Part shown: in pieces, positions 1-33,698 of the stretch
Numbering within the stretch: the stretch's first letter is position 1
Layout: every line of letters begins with the position of its first letter
Assembly (NCBI GenBank): GCA_030631525.1
Contig: DAOVKY010000001.1
Span: 1-36,916 of the forward strand
DNA length: 36,916 nt
Reading direction: 5' to 3'
Source of the DNA: a bacterium
Lineage (GTDB): Bacteria; JAHJDO01
Notes under the pieces: model-generated
The model's input: the letters and a program-made list of their open reading frames with translations, nothing else
What the model was told of the DNA's origin: nothing
Databases searched by the model: none
Made by a program: the position numbers and the translations under genes

Positions 1-120
1 AAGGCAAAGAGCCTGAAAAGAAAGCTGACGAAGGCAAAGAGCCTGAAAAGAAAGCTGACGAAGGCAAAGAGCCTGAAAAGAAAGCTGACGAAGGCAAAGA
101 GCCTGAAAAGAAAGCTGAGT
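1..120. repeat. Perfect 30-bp tandem repeat, about 3.9 copies, running into the window edge
   Basis: aaggcaaagagcctgaaaagaaagctgacg occurs at 1, 31 and 61. The fourth copy at 91 diverges only in its last 2 nt. The repeat is in-frame and coding. Confidence 0.95.
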
Positions 121-22589: not shown

Positions 22590-23345
22590 TTACTTCTCTC
22601 CACTTGCTAAGTCCGTCAATATCTTCCCTATAATCGGTGTCTCATTTTTATGCTTTGCAGCTTCAATCTTCCCGGCTTCTCTCCAGACTGAGTCCAGATA
22701 ATATTCCCATGCCTGACCGGTCCCTTTTAGTTTCACGCACCTGTTAAGAACTCCCTCATATTGAGCCTGTGTCAAAACCTTTACAGCTTTTTCAATGGTA
22801 TTTTTGAGCGTGTGCGATACTTCTTTCGGTATCCTGTTTTTGTTCTTATGAGTTTTTTGGAAAAACAATTCATAATATTTGGCTGTTTTCTCCTGTGAGC
22901 TTTGCTTTGGTTCTTCTTTTTTCTTAGGCGGTGTGTCAGGTTCCGGCAATTTCCTTTGTTTCTCTCTAAATCTCTGTTGTCTCAAACTGTTTTGCTCTCT
23001 GATTCTTTCGAGTCCTTCAACGTTCTGATGCTTTTGCCAATTGGTTATTTTCATGATTCCATTATTATCACATCTGACCAGCCCAAATTTCTTTAAAACA
23101 TTCAAAGCTAATTGTATCGCATCTAGGGGACGGTTAAATAGAGAGGAGAGCATTTCGTCTGTGTAAGGGGTATCCTTATCAAAAAACACATAACCGTTTA
23201 TGTTTTTTCTGCCGGCTAAAGTTAATAGTTTTACCCAGATAATTAATATCTTATCCGCTTCTGGCATGGCTTCTATCAGTTTTATTTTCTCATCATCGAA
23301 CATTCCTGTCAGAATTTTTATCCATTTTACCTCAATAATTTCCAT
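22590..23345 (-). CDS. Phage replisome organizer (DnaD-like N-terminal domain)
   Basis: WIKILTGMFDDEKIKLIEAMPEADKILIIWVKLLTLAGRKNINGYVF matches the Phage_rep_org_N signature as I remember it. Confidence 0.65.
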   Translation of the reverse strand: MEIIEVKWIKILTGMFDDEKIKLIEAMPEADKILIIWVKLLTLAGRKNINGYVFFDKDTPYTDEMLSSLFNRPLDAIQLALNVLKKFGLVRCDNNGIMKITNWQKHQNVEGLERIREQNSLRQQRFREKQRKLPEPDTPPKKKEEPKQSSQEKTAKYYELFFQKTHKNKNRIPKEVSHTLKNTIEKAVKVLTQAQYEGVLNRCVKLKGTGQAWEYYLDSVWREAGKIEAAKHKNETPIIGKILTDLASGEK

Positions 23346-30211: not shown

Positions 30212-30682
30212 TTATTTCTCCTTTTTTTTAAAGATCTGTTTTAGCTTCTGTTTGTGCTTTATGTGTATTTGTTTACCATTTTCCCATTGTATAATGGTTT
30301 GCACGCTCACATTTAATTCAGACGCAAGTTTCTCTTGAGTCCATTTTTTTGTTTCTCTCAGTTCTCTCACAAAAATTTGTTTTAATTTGCGGTCATATCT
30401 TCCGCGAAAATAGTCTGGCAATCTTATCTTCTTTTCATTCTTAATTATTTTATAAACTTCGTTACTGCCCAAAACCTCAGCACGATACCATTCATTGCGG
30501 ATACGATGTTTTCTTGCTGCATAATGGATTTTGCTTTCCAGTTCTTTATCTCCTTCAAAGAGCTTGCGTATTTTTAATTCCTCATAGTGCGCTGTTTGTA
30601 AATGGTCATAACGACCTGCAATGTTTTCAGTCCAGCCTATTTTAATCGGTTTATTCTCTCCGGCTTGAATAAAGTAAATCAT
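30212..30682 (-). CDS. T5orf172 (GIY-YIG superfamily) domain protein fused to a C-terminal XRE-type HTH
   Basis: YFIQAGENKPIKIGWTENIAGRYDHLQTAH...E..IH......R.RNEWY is the T5orf172 pattern. WTQEKLASELNVSVQTIIQWENGK is an HTH. ATG 30682 overlaps the stop of the upstream HTH gene (ATGA). Confidence 0.65.
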   Translation of the reverse strand: MIYFIQAGENKPIKIGWTENIAGRYDHLQTAHYEELKIRKLFEGDKELESKIHYAARKHRIRNEWYRAEVLGSNEVYKIIKNEKKIRLPDYFRGRYDRKLKQIFVRELRETKKWTQEKLASELNVSVQTIIQWENGKQIHIKHKQKLKQIFKKKEK

Positions 30683-30840
30683 TTCTTCCCTAATATTTTT
30701 TCGAGTTTTTTTAGAAATATCCGATGAGGTTTTGTTTTGCCTGTTTCCCAACGATGAACTGACATCATAGATACTCCAACTTTTGAGGCTACATCTTCTA
30801 ATGTCCAGCCTCTTTTCTCACGCAATTTCTTAATATCCAT
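30679..30840 (-). CDS. 53-aa Cro/CI-type (XRE) HTH regulator (not in the ORF track)
   Basis: AAGGAGAG RBS. The sequence is MDIKKLREKRGWTLEDVASKVGVSMMSVHRWETGKTKPHRIFLKKLEKILGKK. It explains the spurious N-terminal extension of track ORF 30212-30751. Confidence 0.7.
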   Translation of the reverse strand: MDIKKLREKRGWTLEDVASKVGVSMMSVHRWETGKTKPHRIFLKKLEKILGKK

Positions 30841-30920
30841 ATTCTCTCCTTATCCGTAATAATTATTATCGTTGTTTGTTGCCGCTACGACTAGTATTAC
30901 AATCAACAATATTAAAGTTA

Positions 30921-31097
30921 TCATTGTTCATTAAAGATAGATTTTACCCTCTCCAAGCGGATGGCAATTTTTGCCATGCAGTCTGAACTACCTATAAGCA
31001 GTTTATAAGCATAGTCAGGCTCTGCCTTAACCTTATCTAAGGTCATATTGCCTATCCAGCGGTTATACTGCCTTAATTGCCTTATTGAGTCTCTCAT
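30921..31097 (-). CDS. 58-aa first gene of the early leftward operon, unknown function
   Basis: AAGGAG with a 6-nt spacer precedes ATG 31097. The upstream ATGs of the track ORF lie inside or at the promoter. Confidence 0.5.
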   Translation of the reverse strand: MRDSIRQLRQYNRWIGNMTLDKVKAEPDYAYKLLIGSSDCMAKIAIRLERVKSIFNEQ

Positions 31098-31137
31098 GGT
31101 TTGCTCCTTTTTTTGTTTTAGTTTACCCATGTTTTCC

Positions 31138-31165
31138 ATTATAACAATGGTTATACACCTGTCAA
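31138..31165 (-). promoter_or_regulatory. Consensus sigma70 early leftward promoter
   Basis: On the minus strand: TTGACA (31165-31160), a 16-nt spacer, then TATAAT (31143-31138). Confidence 0.65.
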
Positions 31166-31373
31166 GCGCAAAATGCAAGAAAAATAAAAATACTTTATCA
31201 AATCGCTATGCTACGCCTGTGCAAAAAAAATAAAAAAAATTCGCAGAAAAACTTGACAAATAATGCCAATTGACACTTTTTACCCCTCTACCTGCTGACG
31301 CCTATCAAACACATCTCAAAAAAAACGTCATTTTTACGCAATAAAGTCAAGTCCTATTATAAAAGTGGGATAA

Positions 31374-31487
31374 CTCTGGATCATTCTGGATAGTTTTGGA
31401 CTATTCTGGATTAAATTTTCCAGCAAAATCCACCCCTAATTTTATTGACATTTTGCCCTGTGGATAACCTGTGGAAAGTGTGGATAT
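31374..31487. promoter_or_regulatory. DnaA-box cluster / candidate replication origin element
   Basis: TGTGGATAA (31459-31467) is a perfect complement of TTATCCACA. TGTGGAAAG (31470-31478) and TGTGGATAT (31479-31487) are co-oriented with it. They are preceded by four 10-bp-phased T(C/T)TGGA(T/C) repeats at 31374-31411. Confidence 0.55.
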
Positions 31488-31500
31488 CAAAAACAGCCCC

Positions 31501-31592
31501 AGCGTTACTCTAGCGTTACGTCAGCGTTACGCACCTTTTTTCAAACCGTTTTCCCTCAGCCCCGTAACGTTACTTTAAACGTTATGTAACGC
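31501..31592. repeat. Iteron-like AGCGTTAC repeats (three direct at 11-bp phase, plus inverted copies)
   Basis: AGCGTTAC occurs at 31501, 31512 and 31523. The palindrome GTAACGTTAC is at 31564-31573, and an inverted GTAACGC is at 31586-31592. Nearby, TAGATTAAGA occurs twice (31595, 31607). Confidence 0.7.
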
Positions 31593-31696
31593 AGTAGATT
31601 AAGAGTTAGATTAAGAAGAGAAAGAGATTACTTAATTAAGGGACCTCAATATTTTTCACAAAAATCTCTTAATTTTTCTCAATAAAAATATACTTA

Positions 31697-31726
31697 TTGA
31701 CAAATTATATTTCTTTCTGATATTCT
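31697..31726 (+). promoter_or_regulatory. Putative rightward (packaging/late) promoter
   Basis: TTGACA (31697-31702), an 18-nt spacer, then TATTCT (31721-31726). The terS ATG begins 7 nt after the -10. Confidence 0.45.
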
Positions 31727-31732
31727 TTGTTT

Positions 31733-32197
31733 ATGCCTGCCAAAAAGAAGCTGAGTGAGAAAATTAAAAAGTTCGGCCGAGAATATCTTATCGATTTTAA
31801 TGGAGCTAAGGCATATATCCGGGCTGGTTATAGTAAAAAGGGCGCAAAACAATCTGCATCTAAATTACTACTGACGAATACTGACCTTCAGGCTTATCTT
31901 GCTGACTTAATTAATACTCAGACTCAGGATGACGAGATATCTGTCAAAGAAATTATCCGAAAATTAAAAATTGTCGTGGATCGCTGTATGCAGGAGATTG
32001 AAGTTAGAGATAAGAAAGGCAACCCGACAGGAGAATGGCAATTTGACTCTGCCGGTGCGAATAGAAGTCTGGAATTGCTCGGGAAACATTTGGCAATGTT
32101 CACTGATAAATTTAATATGACTAATGACGATCTACATATTACTGTTGAGTTACAAAATGCAGGACAGGCGAAGTGTCCTGATGAAGTGATTCAGTAG
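31733..32197 (+). CDS. terS: Terminase small subunit
   Basis: KKFGREYLIDFNGAKAYIRAGYSKKGAKQSASKLLLTNTDLQAYL matches the Terminase_2 signature (EYL.d.Na..A...AGYS...A......LL). It lies directly upstream of terL. Confidence 0.75.
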   Translation: MPAKKKLSEKIKKFGREYLIDFNGAKAYIRAGYSKKGAKQSASKLLLTNTDLQAYLADLINTQTQDDEISVKEIIRKLKIVVDRCMQEIEVRDKKGNPTGEWQFDSAGANRSLELLGKHLAMFTDKFNMTNDDLHITVELQNAGQAKCPDEVIQ

Positions 32198-32258
32198 GTA
32201 GCAACGTCCTAGCCTGAGCGAGACTTTGCGAATTTGGGCGTAACATGGGGGTAAGAAA

Positions 32259-33698
32259 TTGGAAATTGGCTTCAAATTAACCACGAAACAGACAGAAGCG
32301 TGGATTCCGCTCTTTTCGTTAAAAGATGTTGACGTGCTTTATGGTGGAGCTAAAGGCGGCGGAAAGTCCTATCTTTTATGTCTCTGGGCGTGGTTATGGG
32401 TTAGAAAACTCATAAAAATCTTACAAATTCCTATGTTAAAAAATCCCATTCCTCTTGGTTTTATAGGCCGTAAGAGAGGCGTGGATTTTTCCAAGACAAC
32501 GCTTGAAACTTGGAAGAAAATCATACCTCAAGACGGATATTACATCCGGGAGCAAGATAAAGAAATCGTTATTGAGGGGCGGGCCAAAATTCTATTTGGG
32601 GGTTTGGATGATCGGGAGAATATCAATAAATTTAACTCTGCAGAGCTGGCTTTCTTTGCTATTGATCAGGCTGAGGAGACAGAGAGAAGCGATATTGGTG
32701 TGATTGAGGCGTCAATAAGGCTAATATATAACAAAATTCAGCCGCCATATAAGTCTCTTTACACTGCTAATCCTGCGGAGTGCTGGCTCAAGAATGACTT
32801 CGTAAAAGGCGAGAGGGCTGGTGCGATATTCGTGCCTGCGCTTCCTGCGGACAATGAGCATCTGCCTGATAACTACATTGAGCGGTTAGAGAAGTCCTTC
32901 TCCTATGACCAAGTGCTTCTGCAGGCCTACAGGGATGGGAACTGGGAAGTTATGATGTCCTCATACGCGGTGATTCCGTCTAAATACATGGATGAACTGC
33001 AGGGATATAATCATCATCCGGAAAAAGACAGGTTCTGTGTTGTGTGTGATCCTGCGACCGGCGGGGATGAATGTGTGATTTACGTGTTTGAGCATTACAA
33101 AATCCGAGATATGAAGATATTACATACAGACGACACAATGATAATCGTGGGCGAAATGATGATAATGGGCAATCAATATGGTGCTGAGGTGTTCGGTGTT
33201 GACGTGATAGGCATAGGCAAAGGCGTATATGATAGACTGGTGGAGCTAATAATAAAGCCAATCAGGGCAGCAGAAAAGGGAAGAACGAGAGAGGCTGATA
33301 ACTTTCCATTTGAGGGTGCGATTGCTACCAAAAAGGTGGTGGATATCCATTCTTCTCGGACATCTTCGGACCCAGAGCGATGGGGCAATCTCCGTGATGA
33401 GATATGGTGGAAGGCTCGGGAACTTATCATTGACCATAAGGTTGCATATCCTCAAGATGAGGAGCTAAGAAGGCAGCTGTGCGCTGTGAGATATAAGACA
33501 ATCAGTAGTGACGGAAAGGTTAAACTTGAGCTAAAAGAGGATACTAAAAAGAGGCTGGGGCGCAGTCCTGACAGGGCTGATGCCTATGTGTATGGTCTGT
33601 GGACAATGCAGCAAGTTAAGTCGGCAAGTAAAGAGTTGTATGGCCGGCAAAAGCAAAGTTCGTATAATTCGGATTATGACGTGCTTGGATATAAATAA
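32259..33698 (+). CDS. terL: Terminase large subunit
   Basis: Walker A is LYGGAKGGGKSY, and the C-terminal part is nuclease-like. There is no in-frame ATG upstream of the Walker A, so the start is TTG 32259 with a GGGGGT RBS. Confidence 0.8.
   Translation: MEIGFKLTTKQTEAWIPLFSLKDVDVLYGGAKGGGKSYLLCLWAWLWVRKLIKILQIPMLKNPIPLGFIGRKRGVDFSKTTLETWKKIIPQDGYYIREQDKEIVIEGRAKILFGGLDDRENINKFNSAELAFFAIDQAEETERSDIGVIEASIRLIYNKIQPPYKSLYTANPAECWLKNDFVKGERAGAIFVPALPADNEHLPDNYIERLEKSFSYDQVLLQAYRDGNWEVMMSSYAVIPSKYMDELQGYNHHPEKDRFCVVCDPATGGDECVIYVFEHYKIRDMKILHTDDTMIIVGEMMIMGNQYGAEVFGVDVIGIGKGVYDRLVELIIKPIRAAEKGRTREADNFPFEGAIATKKVVDIHSSRTSSDPERWGNLRDEIWWKARELIIDHKVAYPQDEELRRQLCAVRYKTISSDGKVKLELKEDTKKRLGRSPDRADAYVYGLWTMQQVKSASKELYGRQKQSSYNSDYDVLGYK

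Follow-up and report, generated by a model that had tools for sequence, protein, structure and literature searches.

The DNA analysed here, called the window throughout, is one entire contig (C114) of 36,916 b within a 62%-complete metagenome-assembled genome, and it is the almost complete genome of a short-tailed phage. Its late genes are read rightwards, from terS (31733) through terL and a T7-type portal gene and on across the contig ends to 21160, and its early genes leftwards, from 31178 to 21223. The early set encodes a Cro-like helix-turn-helix (HTH) protein of 53 amino acids, a T5orf172-HTH protein, RecT, an exonuclease, a methyltransferase, a replisome organizer and an HNH endonuclease. 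Between the two operons lies a divergent gap of 548 bp, and in it sits a module of DnaA boxes, phased repeats and AT-rich DNA (Table 1), which is the subject of this work and a candidate origin of replication.

Table 1 Features of the divergent gap and the organizer gene of the window.
Feature	Position	Strand	Basis
Early promoter, sigma-70-type: TTGACA, 16 nt with TG, TATAAT	31138-31165	-	12 of 12 consensus matches
A-tracts (31221-31250) and TTGACA hexamers at 31253 and 31270	31221-31275	+	direct reading, promoter scan
Phased repeats T(C/T)TGGA(T/C), four copies, 10-bp phase	31374-31411	+	Tandem Repeats Finder, period 10, 4.4 copies
DnaA-box trio, strong-weak-strong	31459-31487	+	direct reading, motif scan
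Iteron array A: (C/T)AGCGTTAC, three copies at 31500, 31511 and 31522, 11-bp phase	31500-31531	+	
Iteron array B: GTAACGTTAC, TAAACGTTAT, GTAACGC, 11-bp phase	31564-31592	+	
TAGATTAAGA, two copies at 31595 and 31607 (12 nt apart), purine-rich run, perfect palindrome CTTAATTAAG (31631-31640)	31595-31640	+	
AT-rich tract, least stable DNA of the region, candidate unwinding element	31600-31720		duplex-stability scan
terS promoter: TTGACA, 18 nt, TATTCT (31697-31726)	31697-31735	+	promoter scan; -10 ends 6 nt before ATG 31733
Replisome organizer, DnaD-like N-terminal domain	22590-23345	-	PF09681, E = 8e-46; TIGR01714, E = 1e-37

Architecture and conservation of the module

A preliminary description of this DNA had listed the motifs of the gap, the flanking promoters and the organizer gene. 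All of the motifs are present where it placed them, both by direct reading and as re-found by the tools used, and the two promoters and the organizer assignment likewise hold (Table 1). Bounded on the left by the early promoter, the module follows the order DnaA boxes, phased iterons, and then the least stable DNA of the region. The trio opens with a perfect DnaA box, TGTGGATAA at 31459, the only one in the 36.9 kb; it is followed by TGTGGAAAG at 31470, with two mismatches, and by TGTGGATAT at 31479, with one mismatch and 20 nt away from the perfect box. The boxes are thus spaced 11 and 9 nt from start to start, and gaps of 13 and 77 bp separate the trio from arrays A and B, respectively. Array A reads GTAACG on the minus strand. 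Array B has the opposite orientation and is made up of the palindrome GTAACGTTAC (31564-31573), AACGTTAT at 31578 and GTAACGC at 31586. GTAACG occurs 16 times in the window versus 5.8 ± 2.4 times in shuffled sequences, and six of the 16 copies fall within 31503-31591. Tandem Repeats Finder reported three adjacent short-period arrays, of period 10 (31368-31411), period 11 (31457-31486) and period 11 (31500-31531), which are the only non-coding ones of their kind in the window; the sole further short-period array in the gap is a two-copy A-tract array at 31223-31240. At the other end of the module, the 40-mers at 31660-31720 belong to the 0.2% least stable of the contig (99.8th percentile), that at 31670-31710 being the fourth least stable of all.

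No blastn match to 30600-32300 was found among cultured phages, and a TerS protein scan of viral contigs (IMG/VR) yielded no relatives. Related loci were obtained through protein look-ups in metagenomes and, in the case of locus L211, with a DNA pattern built from the TAGATTAAGA...CTTAATTAAG core. The module is present in three further lineages: L005 (TerS 83% identical), the group of L008-L011 and L041 (TerS 63% identical), and L211. All four lineages share array B (GTAACGTTAC, AACGTTA and TAACG in 11-bp phase), two AGAT(T/A)AAGA repeats 12 nt apart, the palindrome CTTAATTAAG, the AT-rich tract, and a promoter positioned for a leaderless first late gene. Array A is variable (CGTTAC or CGTGAC), with three copies in the window, two in L005, two CGTGAC variants in L211 and one in L008. 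The copy number of the TGGA repeats ranges from four in the window and five to six in L211 to one in L005 and none in L008. A DnaA-box cluster lies 64-90 bp to the left of array B in each of the four lineages; its orientation in the window is that of L008, with the same trio throughout L008-L011, and it is inverted in L005 and L211.

The proximal 170 bp are 87% identical between the window and L005 and 74% between the window and L008, the corresponding values for the adjacent terS gene being 86% and 65%. The distal half cannot be aligned with L005 or L008 (46-47% identity) and its A-tract part is not conserved, yet the perfect DnaA box and its cluster are kept in four of four lineages, where a perfect box would be expected by chance at about 0.007 per lineage, a rough estimate from base composition. 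Since the boxes have been kept in otherwise unalignable DNA, this pattern indicates selection on the motifs themselves, beyond recent common descent. The preliminary description had staked its reading on the conservation of boxes and repeats in relatives, and both are kept in L005, L008-L011 and L211.

Repeats of the organizer family outside the organizer gene

The organizer is the only initiator-like protein seen in the scans of the early genes. Its N-terminal domain matches DnaD-like loaders in PHROG, and no solved structure matches the protein. According to the TIGR01714 family note, the low-complexity region of these proteins stems from direct repeats that can serve as a phage origin. Of the 67 non-redundant homologues of the organizer taken from viral contigs, most have a linker that codes for NVT..NVTVT-type or related (SRDSH/HETLSNG) motifs and continues as an acidic or basic low-complexity sequence, the underlying DNA being composed of GTAACG- or GTCACG-type and purine-rich repeats. 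ORF13 of TP901-1 and Rep2009 of Tuc2009 are described as binding direct repeats inside their own genes, which serve as the origin (PMC8965321), and gp38 of SPP1 binds repeats beside an AT-rich unwinding element at oriL in gene 38, and also at the distant oriR (PMC6316719).

The organizer gene of the window contains no GTAACG, and no repeat arrays are found in or beside it. In a pairwise alignment its product shows a 10-amino-acid gap exactly where the organizer of L044 has SNVTVTSHNG. In L044 (TerS 51% identical), the organizer is 60% identical to that of the window and is encoded directly upstream of terS on the same strand; its linker DNA carries GTAACGTTACAGTAACG..TAACGG and a purine-rich run, coding SNVTVTSHNGTEEKRREK. 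Array B is colinear with this in-gene GTAACGTTACAGTAACG..TAACGG, and the colinear alignment of window 31560-31690 with the L044 block scores 37, against 19.4 ± 2.5 for shuffled sequences (40 for L005). The alignment extends through TTTTTCTCAAAAACTC (L005, L044), which codes for LFFSKTQ in organizer genes, a stretch that the window's own organizer gene has also kept, and the intergenic TAGATTAAGA/purine block has its counterpart in the purine-rich repeats located after the NVT-coding ones in organizer genes. Because of this colinearity, the intergenic core resembles what would remain of the middle of an organizer gene that formerly stood upstream of terS in the orientation seen in L044. The arrays had been described as iterons; they are not generic ones, as AGCGTTAC/GTAACG are the family-specific origin repeats of organizer genes.

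The repeat block is absent from the organizer gene of the window and from those of its three closest full-length relatives (P0123, P0124 and P0126), and it is present in that of L044 (P0125) and in the more distant P0133; P0121, which with P0123, P0124 and P0126 makes up the four closest organizers, has no such block either. No GTAACG cluster and no DnaA-box cluster were found on the contigs that encode the repeat-less organizers. The P0126 contigs come from the same samples as terS contigs of the L008 type and are syntenic with the window at 20.7-25 kb (methyltransferase, organizer, small genes and a convergent DUF1353 gene), so that the two sets of contigs very probably represent the same phage. 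From the complementary distribution across organizers it would follow that in this clade the repeats stand either in the gene or in the gap, never in both. An origin inside 22590-23345, the other location raised in the preliminary description, is effectively ruled out, the gene having no copy of the usual repeat block of its family.

The module is also separable from the terminase. In L039 and L040 terS differs from that of L041 by one amino acid (99.2% DNA identity) and has an identical promoter, but the module is absent, and a lambda-O-like initiator gene and an IstB/DnaC-like loader gene lie directly upstream of terS on the same strand. Conversely, L211 shares its backbone with the window (RecT 75%, portal 60%, major head protein 76% and HTH 41% identical) and has kept the module upstream of terS and terL genes that are not homologous to those of the window (L211:3300-5217). 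No module is found in L042, L046 and L047, where, by our reading, a DnaB-like or DnaC-like gene stands upstream of terS. The cases of L039/L040 and L211 argue that the module travels with the replication and early backbone and not with the terminase. The recombination joint between L039/L040 and L041/L008 was located just upstream of the terS -35; the architecture is unidirectional in the former pair, and in the latter it is divergent behind the DnaA/iteron module.

DnaA boxes in other genomes and at known origins

The trio was searched for with the pattern TGTGGATAA-NN-TGTGGAAA-N-TGTGGATA, which has 25 fixed bases. Exact matches were found in 13 bacterial genomes (Clostridia, Erysipelotrichales, Gammaproteobacteria, Anaerolineae and Spirochaetes), and several of them are surrounded by more DnaA boxes. 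The match in L024 is 0.5 kb upstream of dnaA, and one in the metagenome-assembled genome of a gammaproteobacterium (G012:C2:831318-831345) is 43.6 kb from that gene. The latter spacing is that between oriC and dnaA in E. coli, and the trio may mark the oriC of the gammaproteobacterial genome. The metagenome-assembled genome to which the window belongs has TTGTGGATAACTTATGGATAAC upstream of its own dnaA. In hosts so distant from one another, the common binder of the trio would most simply be DnaA itself. The TGGA repeats of the window have the orientation of the DnaA boxes and share with them a TGGAT core; these TCTGGAT repeats could be low-affinity DnaA sites, or else sites of a phage protein.

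Matches were also found in phage DNA. In a rumen Spirochaetaceae prophage (L020:9669-9696, L021:3643-3670, L022:7922-7949) the trio lies in a short intergenic space, with a small membrane-protein gene and its terminator on one side and a tail or baseplate-like gene on the other. In L127 and L128, three contiguous DnaA boxes (TGTGGATAATGTGCATAATGTGGATAA) lie inside the linker of a prophage organizer gene, coding PVDNVHNVDN, directly after NVT-coding repeats and a TACTACTAC run (L127:9900-10010, L128:10480-10580). This is a second, independent pairing of DnaA boxes with organizer repeats. We considered whether DnaA boxes at organizer origins are a rule of the family and rejected this, as L127 and L128 form one lineage among 67 loci.

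The module resembles the origins of the organizer phages TP901-1, Tuc2009 and SPP1 in the protein family involved (PF09681/TIGR01714), in the succession of helically phased short repeats and purine-/AT-rich DNA, and in the GTAACG core, which many in-gene copies share. It differs from them in that the only copy is outside the gene, 8.2 kb away and intergenic, and has DnaA boxes attached to it; an origin that is bound by the organizer and yet lies outside its gene is known from SPP1 (oriR; PMC6316719). Moreover, SPP1 encodes gp39 and gp40 and the r1t-type phages a DnaC-like loader, whereas no phage helicase or loader was seen here. The 159 cultured-phage organizer homologues among the matches listed all come from phages of Firmicutes, a group to which the putative host does not belong.

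The order of DnaA boxes, phased iterons and AT-rich DNA is that of iteron plasmids (RK2 oriV, P1 oriR, F, pSC101 and R6K gamma). At RK2, DnaA bound to its boxes delivers the host helicase, and the plasmid Rep protein opens the DNA. DnaA is an accessory factor at iteron origins, and in P1 the position of its site tolerates change (PMC5043065), a tolerance with which the flips in orientation of the cluster among our lineages agree. Unlike these plasmids, the window belongs to a lytic-looking short-tailed phage that has a DnaD-like organizer for an initiator instead of a Rep_3 or TrfA protein and has no partition or copy-control genes; no matches to Rep_3-like, TrfA-like, ParA or ParB proteins turned up when the early genes, all but some small open reading frames, were scanned against Pfam and PHROG.

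The preliminary description had called the boxes an oriC-like array, and there are indeed points of likeness to a bacterial oriC: tandem co-oriented boxes about one helical turn apart, of which the upstream one is nearest to the consensus, a GC-rich spacer of 4 bp (GCCC) beside that box, and the occurrence of the same trio in chromosomal DnaA-box clusters. The published search rule for basal unwinding elements of oriC asks for at least three NAN trios, separated from a box by no more than 16 bp (PMC8287927). No such DnaA-trio (at least three NAN within 16 bp 5' of TGTGGATAA) was found in the window, L008 or L005, and L211 has a minimal run of three, in a test that 41% of random sequences of equal composition pass. 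The DNA 5' of the boxes is of average stability (42nd-72nd percentile), and the unstable tract is about 130 bp off, on the 3' side and beyond the iterons. With an orientation that is not conserved, meltable DNA on the wrong side and no linkage to dnaA or dnaN, the module departs from oriC, and an unwinding module of the oriC type was rejected, as no DnaA-trio was found beside the boxes in three of the four lineages.

A candidate composite origin and the competing explanations

We consider it reasonably probable that the module, at about 31370-31720, is a composite origin with the layout of an iteron-plasmid origin, in which the organizer would bind the repeats and host DnaA would be an accessory, probably one that delivers the helicase. 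The organizer, whose own gene has no internal copy, would bind arrays A and B through its DnaD-like N-terminal domain, and the AT-rich tract would melt and take in the host helicase. Host DnaA would occupy the trio, perhaps together with the four phased TCTGGAT repeats, and would bring the host helicase to the organizer-opened origin, as at RK2 oriV and P1 oriR. The organizer is probably the primary initiator and DnaA its accessory, because the AGCGTTAC/GTAACG repeats appear to be origin repeats of the organizer family moved from the gene. The earlier proposal of a host-DnaA-dependent origin between the early and late operons is therefore kept for the location, which is the best candidate in the genome, and revised for the part given to DnaA. 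Organizer binding, unwinding and dependence on DnaA are what we infer from features that the sequences do show, namely the architecture of the module, its conservation in four lineages, its homology with in-gene origins and its independence of the terminase.

Helicase delivery is the likeliest task of DnaA, since no helicase or loader was seen in the phage and the putative host uses DciA instead of DnaD. As the preliminary description had stated, scans of the early genes against Pfam and PHROG, which took in all but some small open reading frames, revealed no helicase, primase or replicative polymerase, and they revealed no helicase loader. In the putative host genus (G001-G008), seven of eight genomes encode DciA, and DnaD/DnaB_2 is absent save for one weak match. 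On the host side, DnaA relatives at 88-94% identity exist, and the nearest named DnaA, about 56% identical, is from Clostridia. DnaA may also touch the DnaD-like organizer directly: such a contact is conceivable because domain I of DnaA contacts the N-terminal domain of DnaD in B. subtilis (PMC10201434). More tentatively, we suggest a history in which the origin was cut from the gene and fused to DnaA boxes that functionally replace the helicase loader and helicase encoded by related phages, so that a DnaD-like protein cooperates with DnaA in a DciA host, as a portable Firmicute-style module in a host that is not a Firmicute.

Several observations weigh against the proposed composite origin. 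Clusters of DnaA boxes are rare near organizer-type origins (one lineage in 67 loci), and the identical trio stands between tail genes of an unrelated prophage (L020-L022), which means that DnaA boxes in phages need not mark origins. The AT-rich tract overlaps the terS promoter and is also simply that promoter. The alignment with the L044 block was assessed with mononucleotide shuffles on DNA that is partly of low complexity, and tblastn of the L044 organizer against the intergenic DNA gave an insignificant result (E ~1). The cumulative GC-skew minimum falls at about 31.5 kb, but gene orientation switches at the same point, and because of this coincidence the skew is uninformative as evidence of an origin. 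The host has been assigned only by the binning of the contig into the metagenome-assembled genome. Finally, the Cro-like HTH protein is conserved alongside the module, and part of the region may be regulatory.

The last point leads to the explanation that the gap is an early/late control region, its repeats and palindromes being operators of phage HTH proteins, with DnaA tuning the divergent promoters as it tunes some cellular and lambda promoters. We regard this explanation as unlikely; it may also coexist with an origin. The module does lie between divergent early and late promoters and contains dimer-type palindromes (GTAACGTTAC, CTTAATTAAG), and it is accompanied by a homologue of the 53-amino-acid HTH protein in L211 (41% identity) and by an HTH-like open reading frame in L008. 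However, the GTAACG arrays match the family-specific in-gene organizer origin, L039 and L040 use the identical terS promoter without any such sites, and no promoter overlaps the arrays: every one of them is 55-330 bp upstream of the terS -35, and the early promoter is at least 200 bp off. A likelier operator is the palindrome TATAAC-N4-GTTATA at 31138-31156, which overlaps the -10 and the spacer of the early promoter and is a more plausible site for the Cro-like HTH protein than the origin repeats are. The alternative put forward at the outset, that the AGCGTTAC sites are HTH operators, has thus become less likely for these sites and may still apply to the TCTGGAT repeats and the CTTAATTAAG palindrome.

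That the module is a non-functional fossil, left upstream of terS when the organizer gene was rearranged and joined by DnaA boxes that are unrelated or due to chance, seems improbable. Such a remnant would show what is seen here, colinearity with the middle of the L044 organizer gene, also along a stretch that is protein-coding there, and stop codons in every frame of the fragment. A fossil would hardly be better conserved than the coding DNA of terS (74% vs 65%, window vs L008), or be kept in four lineages, one of them with a replaced terminase, with the 11-bp phase of the iterons preserved. No further copy of the family repeats is present in the organizers of these phages, and the retention of the perfect box in unalignable DNA also speaks against chance.

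Use of DnaA for a purpose other than replication, be it the titration of DnaA to prevent initiation in the host, or the tethering of incoming DNA to the membrane or its arrest, as proposed for the injection-stop (iss) region of T5, is in our view very improbable. In T5-like phages, DnaA boxes are conserved within a non-coding region of complex repeats that is not believed to act as an origin (bioRxiv 10.1101/866236), and the trio between the tail genes of L020-L022 is compatible with a use of this kind. Like the T5 iss region with its eight DnaA boxes, the module is a non-coding part of a lytic phage genome where complex repeats accompany a conserved group of consensus and near-consensus boxes. 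Unlike here, though, the T5 boxes are paired 3 bp apart, in inverted repeats of the terminal repeat and far from the origins, a layout not seen in the window, where a tandem trio (11 and 9 nt) stands beside initiator-type repeats. In addition, titration would call for more than three boxes, the distance of 64-90 bp between the cluster and the organizer-type repeats is constant across four lineages, and in L127/L128 DnaA boxes are fused to the repeats inside the organizer gene.

A packaging site (pac/cos) read by the small terminase is hardly credible: the module does stand directly upstream of the gene of a Terminase_2 protein (PF03592), and the pac of SPP1 overlaps promoters and the 5' end of gene 1 (terS) (PMC6316719), but near-identical terS genes occur without the module (L039, L040) and the module with non-homologous terS and terL (L211), and if there is a pac in the shared promoter or the 5' end of terS, it would fall outside the repeat arrays.

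The remaining features of the gap and contig can be described briefly. The terS mRNA is predicted to be leaderless from the spacing between promoter and ATG; the same geometry is found in L008, L039, L042, L046 and L211, with the first late gene starting 6-7 nt past the -10. The first late gene has no Shine-Dalgarno sequence, and the early genes have strong ones. In the left part of the gap the two TTGACA hexamers are 11 nt apart, and no usable -10 follows either of them. No Rfam family matches and no tRNAs were found, and 31490-31600 folds weakly as single-stranded DNA (z = -2.6). At its start (window 1-118) the contig has 3.9 perfect copies of a 30-nt coding repeat (KAKEPEKKADEG), in which the assembly probably broke off, so that the genome is likely to be near-complete and unclosed; no terminal repeat was detected in the contig.

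In-gene organizer origins, an external second origin (SPP1 oriR) and DnaA boxes at plasmid origins are known already. New in the composite origin proposed here are the relocation of the origin block out of its gene across a whole subclade, the fixed partnership of this block with a DnaA cluster in phages that have no helicase loader, and its occurrence outside phages of Firmicutes. The origins of uncultured phages have almost never been located, and our results provide a simple rule for seeking them: where an organizer gene has no NVT-coding block, the block should be sought elsewhere in the genome. In four related lineages this rule locates a candidate origin. The same loci form a natural experiment on the modularity of origins, in which one terS is found with three replication modules and one origin module with two terminases, and the 360-bp segment is a ready candidate for origin cloning and for tests of phage-encoded resistance. 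If DnaA does act here, the module would show how a phage with a DnaD-like organizer but neither helicase nor loader taps the helicase-loading pathway of its host, and it would be evidence that DnaA can cooperate with a DnaD-like protein where the host is of the DciA type.

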